This document shows, one piece after another, positions 27,061-45,101 of a DNA stretch of 64,000 nucleotides. How positions within the stretch are numbered: the first letter of the stretch is position 1; the number at the start of each line of letters is the position of its first letter. The notes beneath the pieces are model-generated. The model saw nothing but the letters and a program-made list of their open reading frames with translations, was not told the DNA's origin and did not search any database. The DNA comes from a bacterium (GTDB lineage: Bacteria > Patescibacteriota > Saccharimonadia > Saccharimonadales > SZUA-47). A program made the translations under genes and the position numbers. The stretch is taken from positions 31,963 to 95,962 of the forward strand of contig JAUHWW010000001.1 of the NCBI GenBank assembly GCA_030427365.1, given 5' to 3'.

Positions 27061-27789
27061 TTACGGAGTGTTTTGTGGGCTGTTCGTAAACTTAACTACC
27101 TCATCAAAAGTTACTCTACCTACGGAGTTTATGTTATAAATCACACCATCATTGAGACTGTCATCACTGTTTGTTTTAAGAATTTGTGACACGGCCTGGA
27201 TGTCTTGCTGGGTATAGCCGAGATAAAAAGTAACAACTAAGTCGTTGGAAGAGTTTAGATAACGTATAGAATACCGCTCTTCCTCTATAGGGAGTTGTCT
27301 TAAGACGGTACTTTTTTGGCCATTTAGCTGCAAGGCATCGTCTATGTTTGCCCCTGTCACCGTATTGGTAATCGACAAGATGGCAAACCCAAGTTCAGAA
27401 TACTGAACCTTGAGCTCAATCTCTTCTTCGAGACCGTAATAGAAACCTGTATGTACGTACATTTCACCATCGGTGGCAAACCCATCAGAAAAAGTAAACC
27501 CAATCAACTGCTGCTCATTAATAAAAGCACTGCTTGTCGTTTTTGCAAATAGTGCCAAATCCTCCTGTGCTAGCCGAAAAATTCGTTCATCCTGGTTTAT
27601 GTGCGGAAAAAACTCATCGGAATTATAAATAATTGCATAGTCGCGGCCTGCTCTTGGGTCGTCATACGGATTTTGTTTTGCAGGATTAACCGGACCACCC
27701 TCGCTAGTAAAATAGGCAACAGTTATCCCTAGTAATGCAAACACTATAACGATAACAAAGCTGAGTTTTCTAATAACCTGCATATTCAT
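27061..27789 (-). CDS. bitopic membrane protein of the T4SS-like block (VirB8-like topology, unassigned)
   Basis: N-terminal TM FVIVIVFALLGITVAYF + ~210-aa ectodomain; last gene of minus-strand block. Confidence 0.35.
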   Translation of the reverse strand: MNMQVIRKLSFVIVIVFALLGITVAYFTSEGGPVNPAKQNPYDDPRAGRDYAIIYNSDEFFPHINQDERIFRLAQEDLALFAKTTSSAFINEQQLIGFTFSDGFATDGEMYVHTGFYYGLEEEIELKVQYSELGFAILSITNTVTGANIDDALQLNGQKSTVLRQLPIEEERYSIRYLNSSNDLVVTFYLGYTQQDIQAVSQILKTNSDDSLNDGVIYNINSVGRVTFDEVVKFTNSPQNTP

Positions 27790-27801
27790 ACTATTTCCTC
27801 C

Positions 27802-29787
27802 CTAATTTCCGTCTATTGACCAGTGCCATGCTTCATACCCCTCAGAATCACGATCTTGCCCCCGACCAAACTCATACAAACCGTAACTTGATGCATTAGA
27901 AACAAGCCAGTTAAAACACTCATTGTCTAGGGCCTCACTATAAGCTCTCGGTAACAACACTTCATTACACTCAATATCTAAGGCTAAGCCCAGCTGATGA
28001 TTTGAATACCCAGGAGGGGCACCTCCAGGACAGCTTTGATAATCCTCAAGCGGTTTAGGATACGGTCCCGGGGTTGGCGTGTAACCTCCTGAGCTACAGT
28101 GAGATTCATAGATTGCTACTTGCCCGTCCATCGTTCTAAAGCCACCACCCCCTCCACCGGTAAAGGTTATGTTCGCCCCAGCAGCTCTCGCGTCGTCGAT
28201 TAACGATTTTACCGCAGCTGAAATCTGCGAATTAACAACTGCGCCCTCATATTCACAGGTGCGGATACGGTACTCTTCACCGTTTCTGAAGCCGAGAGCA
28301 TTCTCGTCGACAGTTCTTGTGCCTGTAGCACAAAGAATCGCAGTTGTATCTCTTGACTCGGTGTCGACCGTAGTGCCTGCTGCACAGCTCGCTCCCGTGT
28401 AGCTGCCTCCAGTTCCAGTATATTCGTTAAATATTCGATTTGCTCTCTCTCGACGATTATTAATCTCATTTTGTCGGCTGGCCCCTCCATCAATAACAGA
28501 TCTTGGCCTTTCGAATTCAAGAAGAAAGCTGTCAGAAGCCTCATTTATGGTAACGGATGGGTTCTCCATAACCGCAAGAACGCCAGTGAACAGTTCACTC
28601 AATTCCTTGAACAAAAAGTCTAGCTGTAGATCCATGCTTCCTGTTGAGCGTCCCGTTTCTGTGGCGTAAGCAATAAGCGCGTCCTGTCTTGTCTCAAAAG
28701 TCCACTGAGCAAGCCCATAACCATAACTGCCTCGAAATATCGGACCCTTGCTTCCTGTAGCTGCTGTAAAGTCAATTGGTATCTCAGGACTTCTGTTGTC
28801 TGGATAACCAGCCGAAAATTCAACCACTTGCGGATCCATTGTGCCAGCAGATTCGACTTCCAAGTTACCCATGATTCCTGCAGCCGCTTGTTCTGATAAT
28901 CCGATGCCAGCAGCCTCGTCTGTTAGGTAATTCCAGGCATTTTGATACCGCTCTTCTTTTGTTGTAGCGCTTTCCACGATAGGACTATTGACGTTACAGC
29001 TACAGCCGGCAAGGCCCGCCGGACCCGAAAACTCCTCTTCTGGGTCTGTAAGTTGTGTAATTATGTATCGTGTCATCGCTGGGTAATTTTCGGGGTGCAG
29101 ACCATCACCCGATAGATTAGATGCAGCGACACTACTGGAGCCCCACGGAATAATAGATACGTTAGTTTGGCTGCTCGCGACATTTTCAATGCCCTGGTTG
29201 ATAACAGGCCCCGCTATGGTCAAGTTGTTGCCCGCACTCGAACCACGAATGTATGTTGTTATCCATCGAATTTCAATAGCTGGGTTTATAGTGGTTGCAG
29301 CCGTAACGAGTGATGAAGCTAGTTCGGTAATTAGCTCCTCGCCTCCTTCGACCACTTCAGATCCATTGACGACATCAGCAACATTATTTGTTCCCAGACC
29401 AACAACAAGCACGTCACTATTAGACACCTCGGTCTGACGCGCGTTTATTTGCTCAACTCCCCAACTAATACTTCGTCCAATTTCTGCAACAACTCCACTA
29501 ACTTGCCAGCCAGCTTCTTCAACGGCTCCGCTAAGGTCGCCCAGATCTCTCATGCCGACTGTTAGCGAATCCCCCAGAAAGAATAGTTGAGAGCCTGCGG
29601 CGATTTCATCGACGGTAGTTGCTAGGGTTGGAGCAGTGCAGTATATGGTTTCTTCAATATCAAAATACGATGATCCGCTGTCAATAACCCTGCGCTGCTC
29701 AGGATCAAGTGCGTGTACCGAAGGTACGGTAATGGTAAGAACAAAAAACAGTGAAAGAGCGAGGCAAGAAATAATGCGCAATCTCAT
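27802..29787 (-). CDS. secreted tri-domain cell-wall hydrolase: SGNH/GDSL esterase + lysozyme-like (GN..ES...GLAQW) + M15/VanY-type D-Ala-D-Ala peptidase
   Basis: Signal peptide; FFLGDSLTVG, VVGLGTNNV, GDGLHPE (SGNH blocks I/III/V); GIMGNLEVESAG...GYGLAQWT; C-terminal SNHQLGLALDIEC (SxHxxGxAxD zinc-peptidase motif). Confidence 0.6.
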   Translation of the reverse strand: MRLRIISCLALSLFFVLTITVPSVHALDPEQRRVIDSGSSYFDIEETIYCTAPTLATTVDEIAAGSQLFFLGDSLTVGMRDLGDLSGAVEEAGWQVSGVVAEIGRSISWGVEQINARQTEVSNSDVLVVGLGTNNVADVVNGSEVVEGGEELITELASSLVTAATTINPAIEIRWITTYIRGSSAGNNLTIAGPVINQGIENVASSQTNVSIIPWGSSSVAASNLSGDGLHPENYPAMTRYIITQLTDPEEEFSGPAGLAGCSCNVNSPIVESATTKEERYQNAWNYLTDEAAGIGLSEQAAAGIMGNLEVESAGTMDPQVVEFSAGYPDNRSPEIPIDFTAATGSKGPIFRGSYGYGLAQWTFETRQDALIAYATETGRSTGSMDLQLDFLFKELSELFTGVLAVMENPSVTINEASDSFLLEFERPRSVIDGGASRQNEINNRRERANRIFNEYTGTGGSYTGASCAAGTTVDTESRDTTAILCATGTRTVDENALGFRNGEEYRIRTCEYEGAVVNSQISAAVKSLIDDARAAGANITFTGGGGGGFRTMDGQVAIYESHCSSGGYTPTPGPYPKPLEDYQSCPGGAPPGYSNHQLGLALDIECNEVLLPRAYSEALDNECFNWLVSNASSYGLYEFGRGQDRDSEGYEAWHWSIDGN

Positions 29788-30351
29788 CTACTGACTGCCT
29801 TCTGTGATGTAGTTAATAACGGATCGTGGGTAATTTAACTCCGACAGATACTCTTCGTCATAACCAGTTCCCGACTCGCGCAGCTTCCATCCCTGTGAGA
29901 TGGTATATTCGTGAATAGTAAGATAGCCTTCAACCGTTCCGTCACTGCCAATATAGCTAACAAGCCAACCATCATCTTCCAATAGCTCAGCATCTAGTAT
30001 GGTAAAGCGGTTATCTTCTAGGTTGATAAGCACGCTGCTCAGCTCAATCGCTGAAAGCTGTCTTGAGTCCAAGACAACGCTTTTCGAGGAAAAGGGCTGT
30101 AATGATACTGTTTCAGAAACAGGACTCGTTCGCTTCCCACTAGCCCCTATAGAGTATGTACCGGGTCTTAAGCGAAAAGTAGGGTCTGAATTTATTTCTA
30201 TTGTCGGGTAGGTTTTCTCCCCGATTGTTATAGTTTCAAAATCGCTACTATTCTCCAAGGATACAGTTCCAAACCAAAATAATTGATAGAATAAAGTTGC
30301 TATTCCTGCTGTCAACAGGACTGAAATAATCACAAGGACTCTTCTGTTCAT
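29788..30351 (-). CDS. bitopic membrane hypothetical protein (T4SS-like block)
   Basis: N-terminal TM VLVIISVLLTAGIATLFYQLFWF; translationally coupled at both ends. Confidence 0.35.
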   Translation of the reverse strand: MNRRVLVIISVLLTAGIATLFYQLFWFGTVSLENSSDFETITIGEKTYPTIEINSDPTFRLRPGTYSIGASGKRTSPVSETVSLQPFSSKSVVLDSRQLSAIELSSVLINLEDNRFTILDAELLEDDGWLVSYIGSDGTVEGYLTIHEYTISQGWKLRESGTGYDEEYLSELNYPRSVINYITEGSQ

Positions 30352-33300
30352 GGTGACGACCCCGGACCGATATATCGCACTGCATAGGGGTAGTAGCTTG
30401 CATCCCTCGTGTAATAGCCAGTACGTCTTTCTCCCTCGTCGTTTCTGCTGGCTGATGATTCCATCGTTAAGAATTCACCGCTCGGTAGACGCTCGGCCAG
30501 AATCCCTATGTGGCCGTTGTTTCCACATGTGCGGCTTTTTATCAAGAAGTCTCCTGTCCTTGCTTCCCCAGGACTTATTTGTGTAAAATAATCTGTTCTG
30601 TCGAGATATCCTGCTGAGCAGGTTGGTCCTATTTCCACACCGAATGCTTCGTAGATGGCAACGTTTGTAAAGCCACTGCACTCCATGAAGTCGTTGGAGC
30701 CATTCACTACGCGTTCCTCTATCCACTCTCGTGGTCTTTGCCCCAGGCTCCCTTCAATTGTACTAACCCCCCATTCTTCCAGCCACCGGCTGCCTGTACC
30801 AACGTTGTAGTTAGCGTATCTCACTCCGAAATAGTTTTGCGCAGCACAGGTAATTCGTTCGTTGCCTGTAATATTTGAACACTCACCTGTGCTCGTGTTT
30901 TCCTCTGCGACTACTGATCCTATTGGCTCATTGTTAAAGCCTAGGAGTGCACACGACTCCTCAGAGCTAACTACAGTCGCCTCATCTCCAGCGTTATCGG
31001 GTAGGTAGCAGTTGAGACTGTGGCTTGTAAGAGTGTCATTTATGTAGAAGCGGTAGTCTAGGTAATCTGCATTGTCCCTAAAGCCATCACATTCCTCTGG
31101 TTGATTGAACGGCGAGCTTGCCATCTGGTCACTTTGCACGATTGGATCGAGAGTGTCTACGTCAATTCGTGTCGGAAAACATTGGCCATATCTGCTTTCG
31201 AGATCGGCGATATTTGCCTCAACTCTGCTTGCCACCGCGTAAGGATCCTGCACCTGTTCAGCGTCTTGTTCGCTAGCCGAAAAGCCTATTTCGCTGAAGC
31301 CATAATCAAACGGCTCTGAAGCCTCCGCTGCACCTGCCTTAGCGCTAGAGAACAGGCTAAATGGATTCGATATCGCAGCAAACATATTTGAGTGCAGAGA
31401 ACTGACAGACGATATTACTGACGTAGGCACAGAGCGCAAAGTTATCGCAGCTAGTGAGTCTGTCGAATCAAGATCAAATACGCGTGCAAAGAACGATTGC
31501 TTACTCCTCAAATCCTCTTTTAATTGTTGATTTCTGGCATCAAGTATTCCCACTTCTTGATTAGTCAACTCTTCTCCCCCCATGCCGAAGCCGAGCATTC
31601 CAGCAGCCAGTCGTGCCCCGTAGTTGGCAACGTTTCCGAGTGCTGGCCCTACCACATCAGTAACTACTCCATCGCCTGCCAGCCATGAGGCGACGCTGAG
31701 AGCAATATCTTGGGGTGTTGGCAGGCCAAGCCCAGTAAGCACTCCGCTTAGTGCAGCATCAGACAACTGCCCGACCTGAGCTATGACTGGGAGCCCGGAA
31801 ATCCAGCTGCTCACACCGCAGGCAGTGCCGAGACCTGGTATGTTGTCTATTGCTACAAAAAGCTTTGGTTTACCTTTAATACTATCTGGCTTCACTGATG
31901 GATCAATATCTGGCCCAGTAATCGGTTTGCCCATTTCATGCTGGATACTCGCCGCCGCATATACACTTCCTGTTTCGGGGTCATTCAGTTCTTTTACAAA
32001 AAAACCGATTTCATCTAGAGATAAGTCAGAGGTTGGCGAGGAGAAAGCGAGTATCTGTGCTCCTTTTGACATCCAACGGAAACCGGTCCGAAGCATTGGA
32101 AGGATCGTGTTTTGAAATTGAATTTCCTCAGCCTGGTTGCCGACGTCACGAACAGCGCATAGCACCCCAACGACGGCGGCAGGACCCGAGGCTTTGCTAA
32201 TAATGCTTCTACCAATACCCCTCAACCTGCTTAGGCGGCTTCCCTCACCTTCTAGTGCAGCTGCTGCCTCTCGTGACGCTTCATTTCCAAAGTCTGCAGC
32301 ATCAATGTTTTCTGGAGGAGTATCAGGAACTCCATCTCCATTTAAGTCTTGATCGGCTTCCCCGGTCAGCGTACGCGCCCTTACGTCACTCACACCATTT
32401 CTTATGTCTGCGTTTCTGGTCGTCCGCACTCGATTATAGTATGAGAGTAGCGTCTCCCCAGGGCGCCGCACAGTTTTAAACGGATGAAAATCGACACCTC
32501 CGAGCCGCTTTAGAATACGTGATGCCACTATTTGCGACCTTTTTTTGAGTCCGCTGTTCTCTAGTATTTGATCGACGCCAAGACGGCGATTGCGGTCAGA
32601 GCCTCCGATGACAACAATACGTTTTTCGGTAGGACTTCCGTCAATTCTTGTGACTGAACTTGGGGGGTCTCCTGATGAGTCGATATTTTTGAGAAAGTCT
32701 CTAGCCTTATTCTCATCTAAAACTTCTAGTCCGACGAACCTTCCCCTGTCGCCTGGATCAAATACTGGTCTCACGCCTACCTGGTCTATGAGCTTTGTTT
32801 CATAGCTGTTGGCAACACGATTGCCGACCGCGCCCAAACGAGTCTGTTGGATATTTCCACTTTTTGCGTAACGATAGAGAATTCTTGAACTTCTATCGTC
32901 GCCGAAGGCCTGGATGTTCGTAAAGTGAAATTGCTCAAGTAATTGAGCAAACTGGACAATCTGAAATGGTCCAGAAACAGTGAGAAAAACAAGAAATGAC
33001 GCGACAACTCCACCACCAATGCCGCCACCTATTAACACTCTTCGACGCGTAATGCGCTTTCGAAGTCGCTTAAACCCACTCTCTTCTTCTACTTCACCAG
33101 AATTATTGTAAAGACTATCGACTTCTTTTTTATCGACACCACTAGTGTCCTGTCCATCCGATTCAGTTGGTTGGTTTTCCTTTTTCGCCGTGTCATTGGC
33201 TTGCTCAGTAGGATCGGTATTGGCGCGTTCTTTTGCTTCATCGGCGTTTGACGCGTCTTTCGCGTCTTCATCAAGCGTTGGGTCGCCGTTCTCATCAATA

Positions 33301-33632
33301 TTTCCTTCTGCGAGCCGGTCGCTGGCCTCTGGCGGCGCAAAGGCTTGATTAGTGCCTCGGCTCTCAGGAAGTGCTGGCCCGTAATCATCGATGCCAACAC
33401 CACCTTCAAGGTTTTGACTAGGGGCATCATTCTTGTTTATGGACGCTCGGTCAACATCTGGTTTTTGAGATGTCTTCGTTCGCTGTCCACCACCCTTAAA
33501 CGTTGGGCTGGTTGCATAAGGATTTTTACCGCCAACCGTATGGCGACCTTTGCTGCTAATGCGTCGCCGGCCAGTTACTTTGACCTTTGCTTTTCGTCTG
33601 TTATCTCCTGGTGCGGGAGCGGTGGTTGCCAT
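30348..33632 (-). CDS. large bitopic membrane protein with basic N-terminal cytoplasmic tail and C-terminal CHAP/NlpC-P60-like peptidoglycan amidase/peptidase domain (VirB1/PrgK-like role)
   Basis: 1094 aa; Lys/Arg-rich N-terminus, single TM LIGGGIGGGVVASFLVFLTV, C-terminal ECSGFTNVAIYEAFG ... NNGHIGILAE (Cys/His pair). Confidence 0.6.
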   Translation of the reverse strand: MATTAPAPGDNRRKAKVKVTGRRRISSKGRHTVGGKNPYATSPTFKGGGQRTKTSQKPDVDRASINKNDAPSQNLEGGVGIDDYGPALPESRGTNQAFAPPEASDRLAEGNIDENGDPTLDEDAKDASNADEAKERANTDPTEQANDTAKKENQPTESDGQDTSGVDKKEVDSLYNNSGEVEEESGFKRLRKRITRRRVLIGGGIGGGVVASFLVFLTVSGPFQIVQFAQLLEQFHFTNIQAFGDDRSSRILYRYAKSGNIQQTRLGAVGNRVANSYETKLIDQVGVRPVFDPGDRGRFVGLEVLDENKARDFLKNIDSSGDPPSSVTRIDGSPTEKRIVVIGGSDRNRRLGVDQILENSGLKKRSQIVASRILKRLGGVDFHPFKTVRRPGETLLSYYNRVRTTRNADIRNGVSDVRARTLTGEADQDLNGDGVPDTPPENIDAADFGNEASREAAAALEGEGSRLSRLRGIGRSIISKASGPAAVVGVLCAVRDVGNQAEEIQFQNTILPMLRTGFRWMSKGAQILAFSSPTSDLSLDEIGFFVKELNDPETGSVYAAASIQHEMGKPITGPDIDPSVKPDSIKGKPKLFVAIDNIPGLGTACGVSSWISGLPVIAQVGQLSDAALSGVLTGLGLPTPQDIALSVASWLAGDGVVTDVVGPALGNVANYGARLAAGMLGFGMGGEELTNQEVGILDARNQQLKEDLRSKQSFFARVFDLDSTDSLAAITLRSVPTSVISSVSSLHSNMFAAISNPFSLFSSAKAGAAEASEPFDYGFSEIGFSASEQDAEQVQDPYAVASRVEANIADLESRYGQCFPTRIDVDTLDPIVQSDQMASSPFNQPEECDGFRDNADYLDYRFYINDTLTSHSLNCYLPDNAGDEATVVSSEESCALLGFNNEPIGSVVAEENTSTGECSNITGNERITCAAQNYFGVRYANYNVGTGSRWLEEWGVSTIEGSLGQRPREWIEERVVNGSNDFMECSGFTNVAIYEAFGVEIGPTCSAGYLDRTDYFTQISPGEARTGDFLIKSRTCGNNGHIGILAERLPSGEFLTMESSASRNDEGERRTGYYTRDASYYPYAVRYIGPGSSP

Positions 33633-33675
33633 CGTGTTTGCGCCCTTTGATGGTTAGTGTTTGTTTGGTCTAAAA

Positions 33676-35592
33676 CTACCGTAAATTAACTGATTCATTA
33701 TACCCCGTTTGGTCAAGGTTGACCTGTTGCTGTTGCCGCTGTTCTTCTATCTGCCTGACCTCATCAGGATTAGTAGTGATGAGTGAGGTTTCGGTTGGTG
33801 ATGCGGTAATCTGAATATGAACATGGTTTTCACCGGCAAAGAACAATCCCTGTCCGACTGGAAATTGGCTGAGACGTTTCTTTTCTTCACTGGTGAGCTT
33901 GAAGGTGTTGGCGAGCACGTCGACAGCTGAAGCGGATTGTTTCAGCAATATCTGCATACTAGCGTTGGCGACAATAGCACGCCCCATCTTGCTATCCATG
34001 AAGTCTTCAACGTCTTGCGTCACAGTAGTGATGCCGAGGTTGTACTTTCTGGCTCGCTTCGCCAAAGAGAAGAGGAAGTTTGCGGAATCTTCATATTTCA
34101 TGAGCTGCCATGCCTCATCAACAACCAGCATGCGCTTTTTACGATCAGTCTTTGTCTTGTTCCAAATGTAATTCAGGACAATGTACATTGCGACTGGACG
34201 TAGTTCATCCTCGAGGTCGCGGACATTGAACACTACCATCGGATTATCAATGTTGATGTTGCTTTGCTGAGAGAAAATGCCCGCAAATGTGCCGGTGGTA
34301 TATTTACGCAAGCGCTGCGCGAGCTCTGGGCCAGTTCCACCCATATGTAGCAGCGTGTCGTAGAGGTCATTAATGGTCGGCGCCGGCGTGTTGTGGGTCA
34401 GTGGGTCGTTGGTAATGCCAGCTTTTGCGTAGGTTTCGATCAGCGCAGCATCGAGGTCGGACTCTTCGACTGGGCTGAGCGCTGGCATCATGACTTGCCC
34501 GCCCTGGCTGGCCATTTGCGCCTGCGCACCGCCCATCATCAATCGCAGCAGTCCGTGCAAGGTAATAAGGTTGCTGCGCAGTGCGTCATCGGCTTCGGCG
34601 TCATCGGTGACTTTTGGCAGATCAAACGGATTAATACGCGTTGAGCTGTTAAGACTGAGGCGCACGTAGGCGCCACCGACGGCGTCTGCAAGGCGCTCGT
34701 ACTCGTTCTCAGGATCGATAATAAACACTTCGGTGCCGAACATCATACTGCGCAGCGCTTCGAGCTTGACGGTGAAGCTCTTACCAGCACCAGACTTTGC
34801 AAAGACAACACTGTTGCCATTCTCGAGACTGAAGCGATCAAAGATAACCAGCCCTGAGTTGTGCATGTTAACCCCATAGAGGACGCCGTCGTCTTGAGTG
34901 AGGTCGGCAGAGGTAAATGGGAAGCTGGTTGATATGGCGCCGGTATTCATGTTGCGGCGAACCTGCAACTGGTCGGTGAACTGCGGTAGCGTGGAGTTGA
35001 GCCCCTGCTCTTGCTGAGCACTGGCTGGCTTGCTGTATACGAGCTGCTGGGCTAAGACACTTTCTACTTTGTGGCTGACAAACTCCATTTCTTCAACGTC
35101 ATTTGCATAAACGGTAAAGTAGAAGCCGAATCGGAAGAAGCGCTCTTCTCCCACTTGCAATTTGTCGCGCAATTCCTCGGCGTCGTTGATGGCGGCTTGT
35201 TTTCCTGGATCGCGAGCACGGCCTTTTTCAGCATCAATCTGCAGGCCTGCTTCAAGCTGTCCGACCTTTTTCTTGAGGTTTTCCAGCACTACCTGACTCT
35301 CAACTGGGTAGACGAACAGGGATAAATCAATGACTTCATCGAGATTAATCATGCTTGATAACCAGCCGGTGTAGATTTGCCGCGGATACCCAAAGACGTA
35401 GTAGGTGCGACCAATTCGCGTGCCAATCTTGAACTGACTGCTTTCGAATTCGAGGGACGCCGGCGCGATAAAGTCACGCAGCGCGGTAATACCCTTTTGG
35501 AAGGCTGCCTGCACTTCAGCTTGTTCTTGCGCAGATTGCACTTGCGCCTGCGCGACAGGATCGGGCATCTTTTTACCGCCAAATAAGCCCAT
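33676..35592 (-). CDS. VirB4/TrbE-family type IV secretion ATPase
   Basis: Walker A VFAKSGAGKSFT, Walker B MLVVDEAWQL, 638 aa as in monoderm VirB4 (PrgJ/TcpF/Orf16-like). Confidence 0.8.
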   Translation of the reverse strand: MGLFGGKKMPDPVAQAQVQSAQEQAEVQAAFQKGITALRDFIAPASLEFESSQFKIGTRIGRTYYVFGYPRQIYTGWLSSMINLDEVIDLSLFVYPVESQVVLENLKKKVGQLEAGLQIDAEKGRARDPGKQAAINDAEELRDKLQVGEERFFRFGFYFTVYANDVEEMEFVSHKVESVLAQQLVYSKPASAQQEQGLNSTLPQFTDQLQVRRNMNTGAISTSFPFTSADLTQDDGVLYGVNMHNSGLVIFDRFSLENGNSVVFAKSGAGKSFTVKLEALRSMMFGTEVFIIDPENEYERLADAVGGAYVRLSLNSSTRINPFDLPKVTDDAEADDALRSNLITLHGLLRLMMGGAQAQMASQGGQVMMPALSPVEESDLDAALIETYAKAGITNDPLTHNTPAPTINDLYDTLLHMGGTGPELAQRLRKYTTGTFAGIFSQQSNINIDNPMVVFNVRDLEDELRPVAMYIVLNYIWNKTKTDRKKRMLVVDEAWQLMKYEDSANFLFSLAKRARKYNLGITTVTQDVEDFMDSKMGRAIVANASMQILLKQSASAVDVLANTFKLTSEEKKRLSQFPVGQGLFFAGENHVHIQITASPTETSLITTNPDEVRQIEEQRQQQQVNLDQTGYNESVNLR

Positions 35593-36389
35593 TACTGCAT
35601 CTCCCTCTCTAGGTTCGGGTTGACCGCCTGACCTTGGCCTTTTGTGATGACCGGCGCGGTCAAATCACTAAAGTTTTTGAGCTGCTGACGAGTGGCGGTA
35701 TCGGGGTTGTAAGCGTCGTAGTACAGTTCAATCAACTCTTGTGTATCGAGTGGCAACGACTTCACCTGACACTGCACGAGGCCGTTCATGGTGGCCTGAA
35801 TACGGTTTTTCAGCTCTGTTTTTGCGCGCTCCAGGTCAATTTCGTTGATAACGACCTTCTCTTCTTTCTTGCCGAAAATTGTCTGGAAAAACCCGCGTGA
35901 TGCTTGCACCACTTTCTGAGCATCCATTTTTGGCTCAAACGGGATGACCACGTAAAATTTCTTATCCATGATGTTGGTCTGCTGCGCGATAATTTCCATG
36001 TAATTGATGTAGTCTTCCATAAGGAGCGCAAGCAACATATTGTCATGTTCGGTGCGGATTTTATCGAGCTTTTCGATATATGGGCGGATGTCGATCTTCT
36101 GCGAGCGAACAAATACCTGAATCGGGAAATACAAAGAGTTTAAAAAGCCTTGGTAGGCGAACTCAACCGCCTCACGCTCATTTGGGCTCATAAGATCAAA
36201 GTTGATGCTCTGACACATCAGCACGGCGCGGAATGAGCCGTCGTTCATGATAACGATGCCGTCACGTATTTCGGCAATCTCTAAAGAGTTTTGTGTACTC
36301 GTCGGATTTGTCTGAGGCCCAGGCGGCGGCGGTCCGGCCTGTGGGGCGGTCACCTGGGGCTGAGCTGGTTGTTGCTGATTCGGATTCAC
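35592..36389 (-). CDS. hypothetical protein with Pro/Gln-rich N-terminus (T4SS-like block)
   Basis: TAATG overlap with virB4-like gene; no TM; MNPNQQQPAQPQVTAPQAGPPPPGPQTNP... Confidence 0.4.
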   Translation of the reverse strand: MNPNQQQPAQPQVTAPQAGPPPPGPQTNPTSTQNSLEIAEIRDGIVIMNDGSFRAVLMCQSINFDLMSPNEREAVEFAYQGFLNSLYFPIQVFVRSQKIDIRPYIEKLDKIRTEHDNMLLALLMEDYINYMEIIAQQTNIMDKKFYVVIPFEPKMDAQKVVQASRGFFQTIFGKKEEKVVINEIDLERAKTELKNRIQATMNGLVQCQVKSLPLDTQELIELYYDAYNPDTATRQQLKNFSDLTAPVITKGQGQAVNPNLEREMQ

Positions 36390-36422
36390 GCTATATCTTA
36401 CTTCCCACCCTTATTCAGCGGA

Positions 36423-37487
36423 CTAATGAAGTGGAACAACAACTTCACCGCTATCATCAGGTTCTTGATGACTCATCTCACGTTGGAATGACGAAATCGA
36501 GCGGTCATCGTTTTGACTTGCCATCAGTATAGCAGGATTTACGGGGGTAGCACTAGCGCTTTGCGCTTCGCTTTTGCGCCTAGCCGCCTCGGCCTCTTCT
36601 TCCGCCTTTCTCTTGGCCTCAGCTTCTCTCTCGGCCTGGGTTGGTATGCGCTTTTCATGGCTGCTTAGGCGTATCTTCTTTTGAGCTTCTTGCTCTTTGT
36701 GGAGCTTATCAAGCAGTTTCTTTTCATCAGCAGCTGTGAGCGTGCTCTTCACCTTTGGCGAAGCCTTCATTGAAGCGTGTTGCGGGCTGACTGGTGGCAA
36801 AGAAATGCTGCCCGTTAGTGTGTCTGCACCATTCCTTCTACTACCTTGCTTTGTGGTGTCACTAGTTTTTGCCTGCGCAACAAGATCGAGCGCCTCTTTG
36901 CGGTGCTCATTTTCTGATCTTTGTATCAATTCATCAACTTGAGATGAGCGCTCCTCAAGAATGTCAGGCGTGCGTTTAGCATTAATTTCCTCAGGGCTTT
37001 CCTGCCGAGGCGAAGGTGCTACCAGCCGGTCAGAATCATCTGGACGGGCTGCGTTTTTGACCGCCCACCCTCTTGAATCAACGACATTTGATAGAGCAGC
37101 AAAACGACTTTTAACTTCTTCTTGCGTTAGGCCATCTGTGTAGTAGTGGACTTCACGCTTAGGGACGGTAATTGTCACAAGATCTTTCATGCCCGACTGA
37201 TCCCAGATGCGCTTTCGTTTCATGAACAAGAAGCGGATGCGTGATGCGAGAAAGAGATCGGTCGGCTGATCTTTCGACCAAGGAATGGTAAAAACGAGTG
37301 AGATCAAAAAGAATGGCAGAAATAGGATCACCAGCCACGGAAGCGGACTGGTAAGCACTAAAAATGACAAGTAGCCTGTCACCATCGTCGCCATTGCAAA
37401 GAGGAATTGCTTGAAAGTCAACGGACCGATAAATTTGTCTTCGGCCTCTACGTCTTGTGGAACTTTATACTGCGCCATTGTAAGCAT
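36423..37487 (-). CDS. membrane protein, possible VirB3-like component with long charged coiled-coil tail
   Basis: Two N-terminal TM helices (FLFAMATMVTGYLSFLVL / LPWLVILFLPFFLISLVF) then KRKAEEEAEAARRKSEAQ-type charged region; immediately upstream of VirB4 partner genes. Confidence 0.4.
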   Translation of the reverse strand: MLTMAQYKVPQDVEAEDKFIGPLTFKQFLFAMATMVTGYLSFLVLTSPLPWLVILFLPFFLISLVFTIPWSKDQPTDLFLASRIRFLFMKRKRIWDQSGMKDLVTITVPKREVHYYTDGLTQEEVKSRFAALSNVVDSRGWAVKNAARPDDSDRLVAPSPRQESPEEINAKRTPDILEERSSQVDELIQRSENEHRKEALDLVAQAKTSDTTKQGSRRNGADTLTGSISLPPVSPQHASMKASPKVKSTLTAADEKKLLDKLHKEQEAQKKIRLSSHEKRIPTQAEREAEAKRKAEEEAEAARRKSEAQSASATPVNPAILMASQNDDRSISSFQREMSHQEPDDSGEVVVPLH

Positions 37488-37525
37488 AAGTATAGCTTAC
37501 ATAGGACATTTCGTTAACCGTGCGT

Positions 37526-39301
37526 TTAGCTACTTTTCTCTTTATGTAACCGAAGCAGTTCATCGACAGCATCATCGTATTTTTGAATTCTTTTTTCGTG
37601 GTCAACATCAGAAAATTTTTTCGGATCCCTCATGAGCTCACGCCGAATCTCTATTTCTCGAGGATTAATAGGACGTGGAATACTATAGTCTCGTGTAAAG
37701 CGAACTATAGAATCCCGCAAGGCCTGCGCTTCTTTTTCTTCGCCGCTTTGTATGATGTCGTCGGTTATTCCCTCAGCACGTTTTTTCAGATATCTAATGT
37801 AGGCGGTTTCATGTGTCATTTGGTTGGCAGCGCGCGCGTGCATGTCCATGTTTGTTTCGTCTTGGATCAGGACGGTTTTTCCAGTGTCGTCTTTACTTAC
37901 CTTAAGTCCTTCAGGAACTCCCCCGCTTTCCAAGAGCGACACTTCTATCGCTGCGTCAACTATTAAATGACCAGCAAATCTACCTGCCTCGTATAGCTGT
38001 CTCCGCAAACTTAAGGCATGTTCGAAATCCAAAGACCCTTCGACCTCAACCGTTCCTCTTGGTAGGTGTAATTCAGTCACGTCATCTCTATAGCTGATTA
38101 AGCGAACACCTGAGCCGTCTGTGAGTGATTTATTATTCGGGTTCCAGGTGAGTGTTGCTTCATCACCAAACTTATGGAGTACACCCCAGGCATCAACGTA
38201 TTTATCGCCAATTGTTTGATCGGAAAGAGGCTCATACTTAAAAGTGTGTTTCTCAACAGGTAATTGTGGTTCGACATATGGCGCTGGTTCAACTTTAGGC
38301 AGTGCATCATAATCTTCCTGCGTGTTACGTTTTACAGCTGTAATGATTTGAGCAGCTAGCTCAGGCGCCCTTCTAAAAGCTTGCTCTACGAAGTATTTCG
38401 CATTTTCTTGCAGGTGGTGTGCGGCTTCTTTTCTTGCTTCCTGGCGATTTTTTATTTTTTCTGCCTTATCGTCTGGAAGCTGCATACCAGGGTGAAAAGG
38501 ATCAATAGCCGTCTCAGTTTGCTTAAAGTGAGCTGCATCTCTTCGCGTTTTCGCAAGATGTCGGCCCATTTTCGTGGCATGTTGAACATCTGCATCGAGG
38601 TATGGCACAACCTGCACCAATTTGCGAATAGCGAGTGGGAGTGCTCTAGGACCAGTTTTTGTTGGATCTGATTCTTCGTAAGGCACAGAGGTACCCTTAC
38701 CTGCTGCGAGGCGCTCAGAGATGAAATGATCGGTTGCGACGGCTCTAAGCGCTTCAAGAAGTCCAGTATCTCCAGTGCTTAGTTCGGTTTTTATGCCTTT
38801 TTCAGCCTTGTGTGCTCTCTCGTTGGCACTTGTAATTCTTTTGAACACGGCTGCGATATCTTCCGTGCTTATATCTGCGGGCAGCATAGTTCTCTGTCCT
38901 TGCGAGCTACTGGATGGCGGCAAGTAACTGCCAATCGCCCATCTTACATACTCAGCCGCTACATACTCGTCCGGGACGCGGTTTAGGTCTTCAGAATAGT
39001 ATTCTCTTAGATCTGGTGAGGTAAAGCAGAGATCTTGCGTTGGCTTGCCTAAATCAACGGGCGCATAAGCAGAGGTGTTTACTAAGCTGTCAGAGTAGGG
39101 CGAAAGAGGACTTGTATGGTTCCACGATTTTCGGGTCGTGCTGCGAAATCCTCCGTCACCAGGCCCTACGGGCTGTCGATCATCAACAATCTCTACAAAG
39201 TTAACATCTAGGCTATCAGGTTTAGGGTGCTGGGGCTCTAAAGCGGGAGCGTGTTCGCCGGACATAGTATAAATATTACCAGAAATAGGCAATAAAGTCA
39301 A
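37526..39301 (-). CDS. hypothetical soluble protein (591 aa) in T4SS-like block
   Basis: No TM/signal, no recognisable catalytic motif by eye. Confidence 0.4.
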   Translation of the reverse strand: MTLLPISGNIYTMSGEHAPALEPQHPKPDSLDVNFVEIVDDRQPVGPGDGGFRSTTRKSWNHTSPLSPYSDSLVNTSAYAPVDLGKPTQDLCFTSPDLREYYSEDLNRVPDEYVAAEYVRWAIGSYLPPSSSSQGQRTMLPADISTEDIAAVFKRITSANERAHKAEKGIKTELSTGDTGLLEALRAVATDHFISERLAAGKGTSVPYEESDPTKTGPRALPLAIRKLVQVVPYLDADVQHATKMGRHLAKTRRDAAHFKQTETAIDPFHPGMQLPDDKAEKIKNRQEARKEAAHHLQENAKYFVEQAFRRAPELAAQIITAVKRNTQEDYDALPKVEPAPYVEPQLPVEKHTFKYEPLSDQTIGDKYVDAWGVLHKFGDEATLTWNPNNKSLTDGSGVRLISYRDDVTELHLPRGTVEVEGSLDFEHALSLRRQLYEAGRFAGHLIVDAAIEVSLLESGGVPEGLKVSKDDTGKTVLIQDETNMDMHARAANQMTHETAYIRYLKKRAEGITDDIIQSGEEKEAQALRDSIVRFTRDYSIPRPINPREIEIRRELMRDPKKFSDVDHEKRIQKYDDAVDELLRLHKEKSS

Positions 39302-39325
39302 TACGCTTATGCTGGTAATAATCTC

Positions 39326-40171
39326 TTAGGCCTCTTGGTCGTCAGCGCCAGCCCGGCTCTCTTGCTGTCGTCGCATCATCTCGAGCTCTTCCTGTGTCAT
39401 ACCCGCTTCGCGGCTAACCGATCTCGCACCTTCTATAATTGCTCTTAGCTCAGGAGGTACATCCGCTTCATTCATGCGCTCCCTAACAATCTTAGTAACT
39501 GGCTGTCCATTTTCGACGACAGTAACTGTTCGCTCTACCATTGGCCAGCTTGCACCCGCTTCTATGAGATCTGATAGAGTATTTGCATCCTTGCCATCAA
39601 TAGTAAATTTGAAGTTCTCGTCTTTCGTTTTTGGTCTTGGGAGATCAAAGCCATTCGCAACAATCCTTTGAACTTCGCCGTTTGCTGTCGCATTAACATT
39701 TTGCCGCATGCTTTTCATCTGACCAATGCGTTGTCCCATAAGTCGCAAATCAGCTTCTCTTTTTTCGCCAGCAGTTTGAGTGACCCTTCCTTCCTCATCA
39801 ACGCTATCAGTGTATTTGTTTTGTGAGAGGCGAGTTTCAATTTCCTGTACGTCTGCACCTAGCATAGATACAAGATTTTTTGCATCCGTCGGATGGATGT
39901 TGTTCCAGTCGTAGGTACCCATGGCATCAAGCGTCTTTTGCTTCATGCGCAGGTTAATATCTTCTTTGGTCATGCCGGCTTTAATTGTATGTGTTTCACC
40001 AGTAATTTCATCTTGGTAAGTAATATCTTGTGTCGTCGCATCGCCACCACTGGCATTTATCATACGGTTTGCCTGTGCGAGAGCGAGACCCTCACCAAAT
40101 GAGATACGAGATAGCATATATCGCCTGGTTGTAGGCTTCGGCGTAGAGCACTGTATTTCCATGAGTACCAA
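39326..40171 (-). CDS. hypothetical soluble protein (T4SS-like block); start may be downstream ATG (~40063) to avoid 80-nt overlap
   Basis: ORF track; hydrophilic; overlaps 3' end of VirB6-like gene. Confidence 0.35.
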   Translation of the reverse strand: MVLMEIQCSTPKPTTRRYMLSRISFGEGLALAQANRMINASGGDATTQDITYQDEITGETHTIKAGMTKEDINLRMKQKTLDAMGTYDWNNIHPTDAKNLVSMLGADVQEIETRLSQNKYTDSVDEEGRVTQTAGEKREADLRLMGQRIGQMKSMRQNVNATANGEVQRIVANGFDLPRPKTKDENFKFTIDGKDANTLSDLIEAGASWPMVERTVTVVENGQPVTKIVRERMNEADVPPELRAIIEGARSVSREAGMTQEELEMMRRQQESRAGADDQEA

Positions 40172-42122
40172 CCTCTATGTCATCCAGCATTTCTGTGGCG
40201 CCATTAATATGCGACGTTTTTGAGCCTGCTTTTGCGGCAGCCGCCATGCCTCCGAGCGAGTCACCATAGGTGTTGTAGAGTGTTCTCGCCTGGGCAATCT
40301 CACCCTCCGCGTCTAGTCCAACAATACCGTTTTTCTCAAGTTCAATTTTCGCCTCTAATTCGTTTCCTTCGGCCCTTGCGAGCGCCAAGTATGCTTGAAC
40401 AAAATTGTCGTTTGCAAATTTCGTCCCAACATTCTTGTCTTCTCCAGCATGCCTCTCGTGCTCTCTATGAAGTCGATCTGCAGCTGCCTTTCTGTTTCCA
40501 GCACTGAGCTTATCCTTCAGACTGTCATCTGTACCCAGAGACTCTTTTAGAGCGAGACCGCTTTTCGTTGCGCTGTTCAAGCGGCTTCCAAAGCGAGATT
40601 TTGCGGCCTTGCTACCCGGCCGTAATAGCCCTCTTTGCTGCACCCGTTCCCAGTCCTTCTTTCCCCTTTCCCGGCGGAACTTCTTTTGTCTATCAAAGAT
40701 ACCTTTACCACGATCATTGACCATGCCGGCGAGGTTGGCGAATGCGCCGCCAAGGTATTTGAATGCGGCTGGAATGGCAAAGAACGGACCAATGTAGGCA
40801 ATGAACTTTAGGAACAAGCTGAATACGCCCTCTAAGCCCTCAAGATCAGAAGTAAAGACGACAGCTGCGAAGCCCCTGCCTGCATAGAGAAGCAGGATAA
40901 TAAGTGGGAATATCATTAGTAACTTGCTGAATGTTGACCACCATAGTTTCCACAGCTTGTCATTGCCGGGGAAAATCCATGACACGATCGCGATCGGCGC
41001 CATAATAATAAGGAAGATTATCAGGAGCTCTCTCACTGAGAGAAGTGCAAAGATAATTATTACTGCCAGAGCCGACGTGAACAGAAAGCTCATGAGAATG
41101 CTGATCGATACAATGCCAACAGCAAGTGCAGCGACAATACCGACAAGACCAACACCCAGTGTTGCGGTTGTTGCAGCCCCTTCTCCTATAGAGAAGACAT
41201 CTGTAAATTCGAGTGCTCCTTTACCGCCAAATGGCGCCGCCACCAGCCCTCCAACGCCATTACCGACATTGTTGGTGAACTCAATTAAGAACACACATAT
41301 ATCAAACGAGAGTGCCATAAATATGACGGCAATGAAGAGTCGTGGCATTGCTCGCTTCACGGTGTAGGCGTCGACAAACTGGAAACCCAATGCAGTTGAT
41401 ATCACCATCACGAGCAAGACTGGTATGAGCAAAATATAGCTGATATTACGGAAGCTCGACCAGACAGCGCGCAATTCAGGGGTCGAGTAGTATTCTTCCT
41501 TTACTTCCAGCGCATCAATGATCTGCTGATCAACCTCTTCAATGACTTCGGCAGAGCCATAGATGATCGGACAGAGTAGCCATCCCCATCCATCCCCACT
41601 TTGTTCACAACTATCTTGCTCAACCACGTCGCCTTCTTCAGGAACATCTGAACTACCGACACCGTCGGGGTTATCGCTGAGCAAAGGACTAATGCTGCCA
41701 CAATCTACCGGAAGAGCTTGACCAGACAGATAGCAGAGACCATTCCCAACACCAACCTCTTGTTGAGGGTTACACTCAGCTTCATCGTAGAAGCCAGCTT
41801 GACTTCCGCTATCAAGTAGTTCGTAACAGCCGGGAGGAGCAGAACTCCCAACTCCGCCTGGGTTGTCGCTAAGCAGCGGCGTAATACTGTTACAGTCTAC
41901 CGGAAGAGCTTGACCAACCAGATAACAGTTTCCATTTCCAACTCCAGCTTGTTGAAGTGAATTACACTCACCTTCATCATAAAAGCCATTTTGAGGTCCA
42001 CCAGAGAGTAGTTCGTAACAGCCAGGATCGGCTGCAAAAGCAGTTTCTGTTGGGATCAGACTTAGTCCAAAAGCTCCAATCAGTACAAAAAATGCTGCGA
42101 AGAAGTAATGTAGAATTTTCAT
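40092..42122 (-). CDS. VirB6/TrbL-like polytopic T4SS channel protein with duplicated Cys-rich N-terminal ectodomain modules
   Basis: Signal peptide, two ~60-aa modules each with 4 Cys (PGCYELL...GFYDE.ECN...GVGNG.CYL.GQALPVDC), then ~8 TM helices, charged C-terminal tail. Confidence 0.6.
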   Translation of the reverse strand: MKILHYFFAAFFVLIGAFGLSLIPTETAFAADPGCYELLSGGPQNGFYDEGECNSLQQAGVGNGNCYLVGQALPVDCNSITPLLSDNPGGVGSSAPPGCYELLDSGSQAGFYDEAECNPQQEVGVGNGLCYLSGQALPVDCGSISPLLSDNPDGVGSSDVPEEGDVVEQDSCEQSGDGWGWLLCPIIYGSAEVIEEVDQQIIDALEVKEEYYSTPELRAVWSSFRNISYILLIPVLLVMVISTALGFQFVDAYTVKRAMPRLFIAVIFMALSFDICVFLIEFTNNVGNGVGGLVAAPFGGKGALEFTDVFSIGEGAATTATLGVGLVGIVAALAVGIVSISILMSFLFTSALAVIIIFALLSVRELLIIFLIIMAPIAIVSWIFPGNDKLWKLWWSTFSKLLMIFPLIILLLYAGRGFAAVVFTSDLEGLEGVFSLFLKFIAYIGPFFAIPAAFKYLGGAFANLAGMVNDRGKGIFDRQKKFRRERGKKDWERVQQRGLLRPGSKAAKSRFGSRLNSATKSGLALKESLGTDDSLKDKLSAGNRKAAADRLHREHERHAGEDKNVGTKFANDNFVQAYLALARAEGNELEAKIELEKNGIVGLDAEGEIAQARTLYNTYGDSLGGMAAAAKAGSKTSHINGATEMLDDIEVGTHGNTVLYAEAYNQAIYAISYLIW

Positions 42123-42227
42123 GGCTAGGTAATTATGTACTGAAACTATAACAAAATTTTACCTCTTTTGCTTATCTGATTTTGCTAAGTAGTTATCGAG
42201 CAGGTATTATCTACTATAGATATCACC

Positions 42228-44048: not shown

Positions 44049-44500
44049 AAAAGATACTATCGTTTTTTGTTAGCCTTACCTTGCTCAGCGGTTTTTTCGC
44101 ATTCGTGTATGGGCCCCAGCCAGTCATGGCATCTGACGCAGCGAAAGACGCCATCTGTTCAGGCATCGTAGCGGCAGGTGAAGATTGCGGTACGGACGCT
44201 GATGCTGACAGCAGTTCGGTAAGCTCTACTATCGAGACGGTGATCAATATCCTTTCTGTTATCGGAGCCGTTATAGCGGTCATCATGATCATTATTGGTG
44301 GTATGAAGTTCATTACCTCACAGGGTGATGGCAATTCCACAGCTGGTGCGCGCAATACGATTATCTACGCTGTTGTCGGATTGGTCATCATTGCGCTCGC
44401 GCAAGTGATTGTGCAGTTCGTTGTAGGACGGGTTGGCAGTGATCCGCCAGCCTCTCAAAATGTTCCTCCTCCACTACCTCCAGACGGTGGCCCGAGTTAA
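44045..44500 (+). CDS. VirB2/TrbC-like pilin paralog 5 (Pro-rich C-terminal tail)
   Basis: Signal peptide; 2 Cys; IIIGGMKFITSQGDGNSTAGARNTIIYAVVGLVIIALAQVIVQFVV + PPASQNVPPPLPPDGGPS. Confidence 0.5.
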   Translation: MKKILSFFVSLTLLSGFFAFVYGPQPVMASDAAKDAICSGIVAAGEDCGTDADADSSSVSSTIETVINILSVIGAVIAVIMIIIGGMKFITSQGDGNSTAGARNTIIYAVVGLVIIALAQVIVQFVVGRVGSDPPASQNVPPPLPPDGGPS

Positions 44501-44570
44501 AAAGGATTGAGCTCCGATGGAGCTTGTGGTATAAAGTACATAAACAAAGTAATAAGGAATTAGACTAATC

Positions 44571-45014
44571 ATGACAAGACTAAAACGACTATTAGCAAGT
44601 TTTATGCTGACATTCAGCTTTGCAGTGCCAGCGCTCGTGCCGGCTGTAGCTGCGGCTCAAGGCACCAATAACACGGATCAATTATGTGCGGGGGCTAATC
44701 TTGAGTTCACGCTTGATCCAGAAGCAGGTGTCTGTGAAGGAGACGGGGAGGAAGGAAATGCGGGGGACACACTTACCGGTATTGTCACGACTATCATTAA
44801 TATCCTATCAGTGGTCGTTGGTATCGTGGCAGTCATCATGATTATCGTCGGTGGCTTCCAATACCTCACGTCACAAGGTGATTCAGGCAAGGTAACAAAT
44901 GCGAAGAACACGATCCTCTATGCAATTGTTGGTCTCGTAATAGTAGCGCTGGCTCAAATCATCGTCCAGTTCGTGACTGGTCGACTCGGAAACGCACCAG
45001 CATCCGATGGTTAA
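44571..45014 (+). CDS. VirB2/TrbC-like pilin paralog 6
   Basis: Signal peptide; 2 Cys; IIVGGFQYLTSQGDSGKVTNAKNTILYAIVGLVIVALAQIIVQFV; good RBS AAGGAA. Confidence 0.5.
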   Translation: MTRLKRLLASFMLTFSFAVPALVPAVAAAQGTNNTDQLCAGANLEFTLDPEAGVCEGDGEEGNAGDTLTGIVTTIINILSVVVGIVAVIMIIVGGFQYLTSQGDSGKVTNAKNTILYAIVGLVIVALAQIIVQFVTGRLGNAPASDG

Positions 45015-45033: not shown

Positions 45034-45066
45034 AAAAATCTCCCTGCTGTTACGGGGAGATTTTTA
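45034..45066. terminator. bidirectional rho-independent terminator after pilin array
   Basis: aaaaatctccc-tgctgttacg-gggagattttt (A-run/stem/T-run). Confidence 0.5.
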
Positions 45067-45101
45067 TTTAGCTACTGGTTACTCTACAAAAGCAGCAATT
45101 A

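Follow-up and report, generated by a model that had tools for sequence, protein, structure and literature searches.

The window analysed here, a 64,000-nucleotide (nt) stretch of contig JAUHWW010000001.1, carries between positions 27061 and 45014 a type IV secretion system (T4SS), which very probably represents the conserved, non-mobile chromosomal T4SS of the Saccharibacteria, a system of an MPF_FATA-related Patescibacteria clade that would serve essential contact or exchange with the host and not conjugation. The locus encodes a VirB4 ATPase, a TrsD-like protein, a PrgI/VirB3 protein, a VirB6/TrbL-like protein, two multi-domain hydrolases and six VirB2-like pilins. The window is assigned to a Saccharibacterium (TM7/Patescibacteria) because the closest relatives of its VirB4 lie in Saccharimonadales metagenome-assembled genomes (MAGs). 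Systems of this kind have already been published, and the present copy is a standard one and no new kind of system. An initial annotation, made from the sequence alone, had described it as an unusually elaborate T4SS, but its layout is that of the clade, with the same gene order in 42 of 43 full-length relatives.

Conservation and chromosomal setting

The apparatus genes occupy the minus strand from 42122 down to 27061, and their junctions in the open reading frame (ORF) listing are overlaps of 1–4 nt or gaps of 0–43 nt, in keeping with the tightly packed block initially described. This block faces six small pilin genes on the plus strand (42228-45014), from which an AT-rich spacer of 105 nt separates it. 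Profile searches placed dnaA, dnaN and recF immediately to the left of the locus, as the initial annotation had it, and the flanking housekeeping genes also include rnpA, yidC, jag, GroEL and TsaD. The GC content of the locus (0.46–0.52) is similar to that of the neighbouring sequence, so that its composition is not anomalous; Tandem Repeats Finder detected no repeats in the locus, and its unassigned ORFs gave no useful Pfam match at E values up to 5.

A back-translated VirB4 search recovered at least 355 related stretches, of which the best 80 (79–86% identity, nearly all from Candidatus Saccharibacteria or Saccharimonadales MAGs) were examined. Of the 43 loci with full flanks, 42 have dnaN and recF on one side of virB4, while the opposite side carries the apparatus genes, and hsp20 where the flank reaches it, ordered as in the window; the comparison of conservation and position by oriC that had been recommended for this locus thus shows its order to be kept. 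Identity across the loci is 82% for VirB4, 68% for the TrsD-like protein and 77% for Hsp20, as against 35% for PrgI, 33% for VirB6, 36–47% for the pilins and approximately 28%, with patchy occurrence, for the hydrolases, and two bitopic proteins and a 579-amino-acid (aa) protein are essentially undetectable in related loci. The outward-facing parts therefore evolve fast, while the motor is conserved.

Comparable loci have been described on several occasions. For example, McLean 2020 reported a conserved VirB4/VirB6/VirB2 region of Saccharibacteria with an array of 4–6 small secreted proteins, and in Southlakia epibionticum the T4SS cluster and its pilin series were found by transposon sequencing (Tn-seq) to be essential for epibiotic growth (Wang 2023; PMC10633639). 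The S. epibionticum cluster has a Gram-positive-like composition with no recognisable coupling protein or relaxase, and all of SEML1_0004-0019 except 0012 scored as essential, including each of the six pilins (PMC10633639). Its gene order is dnaA, dnaN, recF, 0004, 0005 (PEGA), 0006, 0007, 0008 (VirB4), 0009, 0010 (PrgI), 0011, 0012 (NTF2-like), 0013 (TrbL/VirB6), 0014-0019 (pilins), Hsp20, ComF and tRNA-Ser (PMC10633639). The window is colinear with SEML1_0004-0019, from the dnaA-dnaN-recF side through hsp20, a comF-like gene and tRNA-Ser, and it is from this orthologous locus that essentiality is taken here. The two differ in the hydrolases, as 0006 combines two lysozyme-like domains with a Cys protease and 0007 ends in M15, whereas in the window SGNH, lysozyme and M15 domains share one protein and NlpC/P60 ends the large one; in the swapped order of the PEGA-position gene and a hydrolase gene; in the slot between virB6 and prgI, which holds 0011 (998 aa) and the NTF2-like 0012 in S. 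epibionticum but one unrelated 579-aa near-orphan in the window; and in VirB6, which has 940 aa (frameshifted in this assembly) versus 1088 aa.

A survey of Patescibacteria (Quinonero-Coronel 2025; PMC12102498) defined a distinct VirB4 clade near MPF_FATA, with TrsD, PrgI and VirB6, arrays of 2–11 VirB2 genes at approximately 25% identity and a location near dnaA, in which relaxases are nearly absent, occurring in only 103 of the surveyed genomes. A 2025 FEMS review (PMC12857230) described the Patescibacteria systems as unique among monoderm T4SSs and mentioned six divergent pilins. The window shows no essential difference from the surveyed systems; the present analysis goes beyond the survey in treating the pilins as positional orthologues, counter to its suggestion of interchangeable variants, in counting hydrolase domains and in describing an orphan slot.

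The same observations bear on the possibility that the locus is an ordinary or decaying integrative and conjugative element (ICE) whose relaxase, type IV coupling protein (T4CP) and integrase lie beyond the window, which has next to no likelihood and is largely refuted. Its VirB4 belongs to the conjugative family CD1110, in the closest plasmid relative, from Embleya, VirB4 adjoins genes for a T4CP, a relaxase and an NlpC/P60 protein, and a tRNA-Ser gene lies 3 kb off. Against these points, the recF-hsp20 position is constant in 42 of 43 species-level relatives, VirB4 is conserved at 82% in the manner of a core gene, the GC content is typical, and the Patescibacteria survey detected relaxases in only 103 of its genomes (PMC12102498). 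In agreement with the initial annotation, Pfam scans found no relaxase, VirD4/T4CP, VirB11 or integrase among the sizeable ORFs within 64 kb, including the 38 outside the apparatus, and no att-like flanking direct repeats were found around the locus. An ICE or prophage origin was accordingly rejected, given the lack of mobility genes and att repeats and the conserved chromosomal position.

Motor, channel and cell-wall hydrolases

The features of the locus, in order of position, are as follows.

27061..27789, minus strand: last operon gene, bitopic protein of 242 aa, predicted transmembrane (TM) helix at aa 9-27; positional equivalent of SEML1_0004
27802..29787, minus strand: secreted three-enzyme hydrolase, 661 aa, with an N-terminal hydrophobic segment (Pfam and motifs)
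27817-28236, minus strand: its M15 VanY/LdcB-type carboxypeptidase domain (VanY 1.5e-14; LdcB 4.1e-6; HxxxxxxD...H zinc ligands)
28423-28947, minus strand: its phage-tail-type lysozyme domain (Phage_lysozyme2 3e-24)
29092-29580, minus strand: its SGNH esterase domain (Lipase_GDSL_2 1.6e-4, weak; GDSL, GTNN and DGLHP motifs read)
29788..30351, minus strand: bitopic protein, 187 aa, predicted TM helix at aa 5-23
30348..33632, minus strand: membrane-anchored hydrolase in the PrgK position, 1094 aa, equivalent of SEML1_0007 (PDB match at the C-terminus)
30441-30704, minus strand: its NlpC/P60-type cysteine peptidase domain (PDB 7cfl 1.2e-5)
33676..35592, minus strand: VirB4-family ATPase, 638 aa, without the usual N-terminal segment (profile search)
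35592..36389, minus strand: TrsD-like protein, 265 aa, detached VirB4 N-terminal domain (NCBIfam TrsD, NF041427, 2.7e-6)
36423..37487, minus strand: PrgI/VirB3-like protein, 354 aa, two TM helices and a long charged cytoplasmic tail (PF12666)
37526..39265, minus strand: near-orphan soluble protein, 579 aa (ATG at 39265), no TM helix, no signal peptide
39326..42122, minus strand: VirB6/TrbL-like channel gene, split here into two ORFs (comparison with the intact 940-aa form)
42123..42227, no strand: divergent AT-rich spacer, 105 nt, with presumed promoters
42228-42629, plus strand: pilin 1 (PF18895 4.7e-4, below cutoff)
42626-43330, plus strand: pilin 2 (PF18895 above cutoff)
43330-43629, plus strand: pilin 3, without a long leader (PF18895 above cutoff)
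43626-44048, plus strand: pilin 4 (PF18895 above cutoff)
44045-44500, plus strand: pilin 5 (PF18895 above cutoff)
44571-45014, plus strand: pilin 6 (PF18895 above cutoff; TrbC PF04956 28.2 bits, cutoff 27.9)
45039..45130, no strand: two bidirectional terminator hairpins, each bordered by an A run and a T run, lying between pilin 6 and the convergent hsp20 (folding)

The initial annotation had named a VirB4-family ATPase, a VirB3-like protein, a VirB6/TrbL-like channel protein and six VirB2/TrbC-like pilin paralogs, and family searches bear out all of these, the VirB6 assignment with moderate support. VirB4 matches NCBIfam conju_CD1110 at 1.6e-108 (363.9 bits, cutoff 325), thus exceeding the cutoff of the conjugative CD1110/CTn2 family, and the match spans positions 175-735 of the 752 in the profile. 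It also matches Pfam P-loop_TraG (1.7e-27); its Walker A (GAGKS) and Walker B (VVDEAW) motifs are legible in the sequence, and its best plasmid relatives share 36–39% identity with it. The TrsD-like gene, whose stop overlaps the virB4 start by 1 nt, encodes a protein that matches the CD1110 VirB4 profile at positions 2-118 (8.6e-5), a score that, like that for NF041427, is under the curated cutoff. Because the TrsD-like protein covers the start of the profile, VirB4 itself begins at position 175 and joining the two artificially lengthens the VirB4_CagE match so that it covers profile positions 19-734, VirB4 is, on these alignments, split into an ATPase and a separate N-terminal domain, as published for the clade. 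The TrsD-like protein also carries a precomputed PF26593 TraC-like annotation, and a sequence-profile search of its family against the PDB returned chance matches only (e.g. HA2). The PrgI/VirB3-like protein exceeds the PF12666 cutoff (1.1e-11; 45.6 bits, cutoff 27) and was found in 43 of 43 full loci. In the closest actinobacterial relative, the classical conjugative cluster of Embleya plasmid NZ_CP108778, the C-terminal half of the PrgI-annotated protein matches the TrsD-like profile (6.7e-9), and PrgI and a VirB4 N-domain-like module appear fused.

The VirB6 gene is represented by ORFs of 676 aa (40092-42122) and 263 aa (39326-40117), whereas the intact form elsewhere has 940 aa. A segment of 26 nt (gagcagcagccgagcgaggtgggcga), flanked by a 5-nt GGCGA repeat, is absent from the window near 40120/40121 (within 40092-40125), while three assemblies (L081, L082 and L083) carry it and are otherwise 100% identical over 5.2 kb, and the protein collection contains both the 940-aa and the split forms. 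The deletion may reflect either variation within the population or a fault in the assembly. The ORF at 39326-40171, initially counted among several bitopic or unknown components, was consequently rejected as a separate component, being the VirB6 C-terminus cut off by the frameshift (artefact or variant). The 676-aa product combines a signal peptide and approximately six TM helices with an ectodomain that is Cys-rich and duplicated. The duplication (41641-42024; 192-nt tandem units, 75% identity) encodes two Cys-rich modules of approximately 64 aa in the extracellular N-terminus, a region that is poorly conserved among relatives and absent from the AlphaFold model; within the protein the TM core is conserved, and the ectodomain and C-terminal tail are not.

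The moderate support for VirB6/TrbL comes from a family profile search that found 263 relatives, with precomputed PF19590 TrbL_3 annotations in 116 of the 120 listed, the window's product included, and from the Embleya plasmid, where the polytopic protein in the PrgH position upstream of PrgI-VirB4 matches the family profile (4.9e-6). The membrane core of the AlphaFold model, based on 50 relatives, is confident, and Foldseek ranked TrwI first, at a non-significant E value of 1.6. A direct Pfam scan of the window's product was negative, member-wise Pfam scans of VirB6-like relatives found TrbL in just 3 of 35, and a sequence-profile search of the family against the PDB gave chance matches only.

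In pCF10, the genes prgH-I-J-K encode VirB6, VirB3, VirB4 and a large membrane-anchored hydrolase, and the order of the corresponding genes in the window is the same. Four catalytic domain types had initially been assigned to two hydrolase genes, of which SGNH, lysozyme and M15 stand, while the fourth, read as CHAP, is of the NlpC/P60 type. It lies in the 1094-aa protein, which consists of a disordered N-terminus, a TM helix at aa 199-217, a large ectodomain and a C-terminal cysteine peptidase. This C-terminus matches neither CHAP nor NlpC/P60 in Pfam; its matches to the NlpC/P60 hydrolase PDB 7cfl (1.2e-5) and, weakly, to Spr/MepS, in which the Cys and His motifs align, identify it, by homology, as a papain-like cell-wall peptidase of the NlpC/P60 type. 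The protein has 29 homologues among the related loci (approximately 28% identity), and a word-indexed search returned only two matches. No SLT-type VirB1 domain was found in the window, where the hydrolases present are functional analogues of VirB1, and the combination of muramidase and NlpC/P60-type activities resembles the two-activity enzymes CwlT of ICEBs1 and PrgK.

Hydrolases are a regular component of these loci. Among the 63 loci that contain both virB4 and recF, an ORF of 780–1700 aa directly follows virB4 in 61, and follows one short ORF in the other two, and at least one further ORF comes after it. Domains were scanned in 104 ORFs or ORF segments (2 from the window, the rest from 43 of the 63 loci), with Phage_lysozyme2 in 28 ORFs, VanY and GDSL in 15 each, M23 and Amidase_3 in 7 each, Glucosaminidase in 6, C39-like, CHAP and NlpC/P60 in 5 each, SLT in 4, SLT_2 and Exo_endo_phos in 3 each, Amidase_2 and M74 in 2 each, and GDPD, alginate lyase and M14 once each. 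On its domain content, the multi-enzyme hydrolase module is general and recombines quickly across loci.

Two bitopic proteins accompany the hydrolases, neither with a Pfam or NCBIfam match. The 242-aa protein has three weak relatives among the 80 related loci and the 187-aa protein has two; the latter occupies the position of pCF10 PrgL (VirB8-like) and of the S. epibionticum PEGA protein SEML1_0005, a correspondence of position only. The NTF2-like SEML1_0012 has no counterpart in the window.

The pilin array and its surroundings

All six small plus-strand genes encode proteins that match NCBIfam NF045849 (the Mbov_0395 pilin-like family) and T4SS_pilin PF18895 (4.7e-4 to 9.8e-15), the latter above cutoff for five and weakly for the first. 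In the alignment, five of the six consist of a leader followed by a variable segment and a two-helix hairpin that is conserved, and pilins 2-6 share 24–34% identity with the first. A holin identity for these two-helix proteins was rejected, as one stray match (0.077) stands against consistent pilin matches, and Pfam and NCBIfam searches found no enzymatic domain (e.g. ADP-ribosyltransferase) in any of the six.

Exactly six pilin genes are present in 34 of the 41 loci bounded by hsp20, in conserved order, and in 32–38 of 38 loci pilins 1, 2, 3 and 6 of the window are each best matched by the pilin of equal ordinal rank. Because pilin number and order are conserved and each pilin is individually essential in S. 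epibionticum, the array points to six old, non-redundant positional orthologues that would form a heteromeric assembly and not to interchangeable variants. To our knowledge, no heteromeric pilus is known for any T4SS. It is highly improbable that the six proteins are instead exported toxin-like subunits, following the Bordetella Ptx/Ptl analogy drawn by McLean 2020, or interchangeable antigenic variants, a reading akin to the versatility toward different hosts suggested by Quinonero-Coronel 2025 (PMC12102498). All six carry the VirB2/T4SS_pilin two-helix domain, the class as a whole maintains their number and order, and each is individually essential in S. epibionticum (PMC10633639), and therefore distinct structural roles are favoured over variants or toxin subunits.

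Pilins also set the window apart from Gram-positive conjugative T4SSs, from which it differs in having no T4CP, relaxase, origin of transfer (oriT) or adhesin, and in having VirB2-type pilins, a separate VirB4 N-domain and a chromosomal core set adjacent to the origin. A related locus occurs in a Firmicute, on the megaplasmid NZ_CP062975 (351-361 kb) of Pontibacillus sp. ALD_SL1, which encodes two pilin-like genes of the Mbov_0395 family (at most 46% identity to those of the window; two versus six), followed by a 779-aa protein, a small protein, a TrsD-like protein (31% identity, 3.5e-30), VirB4 (36% identity) and a 1050-aa peptidoglycan endopeptidase. This locus has no adjacent T4CP or relaxase; flagellar genes lie beside it, and the typing of its replicon is non-mobilizable. 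The Saccharibacterial VirB6 profile did not detect the 779-aa protein. The genes Mbov_0395/0397 of a Mycoplasma ICE belong, with the Pontibacillus locus, to the closest known systems. Given the Pontibacillus pilin-like genes, VirB2-like pilins are not exclusive to Patescibacteria among monoderms.

Promoters for the array and the apparatus block presumably lie in the spacer between them, where promoter-like consensus matches at 42182-42210 (plus) and 42234-42206 (minus) are weak and not above chance. Strong bidirectional terminators had been proposed to close the unit, and this holds at the pilin/hsp20 end, with hairpins at 45039-45066 (-20.8 kcal/mol, z -5.6) and 45103-45130 (-16.3 kcal/mol, z -7.4), but not at the recF end, where folding of the recF/27061 junction gave no hairpin. 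Both hairpins were found by reading and folding the sequence, and a consensus terminator scan missed them.

Beyond the terminators, the hsp20 gene (45149-45646, minus strand; 77% conserved) is found in this place in every full locus whose flank extends far enough (32 of 43), and its S. epibionticum equivalent scored as essential (PMC10633639). Hsp20 could have a functional link to the locus, for instance by acting as a chaperone of the pilins, or could simply be a neighbour that is conserved. A comF-like gene adjoins the locus, and between it and the tRNA-Ser gene lies a 492-aa membrane protein (46587-48065, minus strand; four TM helices, spermidine-synthase-like domain), for which none of the 43 full related loci has an equivalent at 10 kb or less from virB4; tRNA-Ser directly follows comF in S. 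epibionticum (PMC10633639). Further along are a MacB-type ATP-binding cassette (ABC) pair (ATPase and MacB_PCD/FtsX permease) and then a sortase gene (48171-50994). Just upstream of the origin genes, a large surface-polysaccharide cluster (2658-20526) encodes three GT4 glycosyltransferases, two FkbM methyltransferases, a Wzm/Wzt ABC exporter, a GDP-mannose 4,6-dehydratase, an epimerase, an O-antigen-ligase-like protein, a 943-aa GDSL-domain protein (16081-18912) and a 668-aa protein with lectin-like and immunoglobulin-like matches (2658-4664).

Possible mechanism and roles in host contact

For the locus itself, the analysis establishes the parts, the operon structure and the status as a chromosomal core gene set; the mechanism is an inference. 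VirB4 homologues can act as assembly engines; the homologue of F-type systems, TraC, drives pilus assembly by itself. In the Saccharibacterial system, VirB4 hexamers with the detached TrsD-like N-domain would be held at the membrane by PrgI/VirB3 beside the VirB6-like channel, and this engine would pull the six Sec-inserted VirB2-type pilins from the membrane, which could then be polymerised into a heteromeric pilus or conduit. The predicted esterase, muramidase, M15 and NlpC/P60 activities may open peptidoglycan in the path of this structure, the wall that is cut perhaps being that of the cell itself and probably that of the host as well. The assembled structure would mediate essential exchange or contact with the host bacterium and not conjugation; it might export effectors, take in host material or serve chiefly for adhesion. 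Because no T4CP occurs within the 64 kb and the pilins are essential, a pilus or conduit role in host contact is favoured over canonical substrate recruitment. The initial suggestion of a non-conjugative chromosomal T4SS for epibiont cell contact is likewise supported by the Saccharibacterial origin of the window, the essential S. epibionticum locus and the Patescibacteria survey.

Several points weigh against this interpretation. The role of the Saccharibacterial T4SS was called "completely unknown" in PNAS 2024 (PMC11665869), and neither a pilus nor a substrate nor a direction of transport is known from experiments in any Saccharibacterium. A VirD4-like T4CP is encoded elsewhere in the S. 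epibionticum genome, where it is non-essential (PMC12102498). In the window, family searches of both bitopic proteins revealed no VirB8-like (NTF2-fold) component, and the VirB6 frameshift means that this copy may be impaired or the assembly wrong.

The slot between virB6 and prgI figures in a different proposal, in which the system translocates effector proteins into a host Actinobacterium and so seizes control of host physiology, the pilins serving only as a conduit. The 579-aa protein in this slot (37526-39265) found only itself among 5.8e9 proteins and two relatives (51% and 30% identity) in a full HMMER scan of 1.84e9 representatives, the more distant of which likewise lies in the slot that separates a VirB6-like gene from PrgI; the 579-aa protein had no match in the 80 related loci, and its AlphaFold2 model, from a three-sequence alignment, was unusable (predicted local distance difference test score, pLDDT, of 44). 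VirB6 abuts PrgI in 36 of 57 loci, and 1–4 ORFs intervene in the other 21; nearly all of these lack TM helices, a few are split VirB6 pieces and the remainder are mutually unrelated. Effector delivery has been speculated on in the literature (PMC10633639; PMC11665869), and a near-orphan lacking a signal peptide and TM helices, in a slot that holds unrelated soluble ORFs in approximately one-third of loci, might be its cargo. However, the slot is empty in the majority of loci counted above, no coupling protein for substrate recruitment lies within 64 kb, no effector-like domain was found in the slot protein and its model is uninformative, leaving effector translocation a minority possibility.

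Import of host DNA, nucleotides or building blocks, comparable to ComB of Helicobacter or the archaeal Ced system and offsetting missing biosynthesis, is also unlikely, and slightly more so. It was proposed in PNAS 2024 on the grounds that comEC competence is dispensable while the T4SS is essential (PMC11665869). VirB4 also matches the DNA-import ATPases CedB (7.6e-15) and CedD (1.9e-6), but these scores are far under those for conjugative VirB4 families and reflect only the shared P-loop. Similarly, the comF-like gene adjoins the locus, but comF is non-essential in S. epibionticum (PMC10633639), and there is no direct evidence of uptake.

With host contact through a pilus or conduit retained as the preferred interpretation, the variability of the locus allows a speculative extension, to be regarded as rather doubtful, in which the host-facing parts are tuned to the envelope of the host. 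Beside a nearly invariant motor (VirB4 and TrsD), the features in question are the hydrolases, with at least 15 wall-degrading domain types across species, the non-interchangeable pilins and the strain-specific slot orphans. The slot orphans, here the protein at 37526-39265, could be T4CP-independent substrates or host-specificity factors. In addition, the 26-nt VirB6 deletion, which sets one assembly apart from three that are identical elsewhere, might be a genuine on/off variant within the population.

Of all T4SSs, the Saccharibacterial system was the first found to be indispensable to the life of the organism that carries it; it is among the few monoderm T4SSs encoding VirB2-type pilins, and its function matters across the whole Patescibacteria radiation. 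The one-to-one correspondence of the pilins across species suggests a heteromeric structure worth looking for, while the quick reshuffling of hydrolase domains offers a handle on host range and the orphan-protein slot a source of candidate substrates. Study might be easier in Firmicute cousins, the Pontibacillus locus among them.

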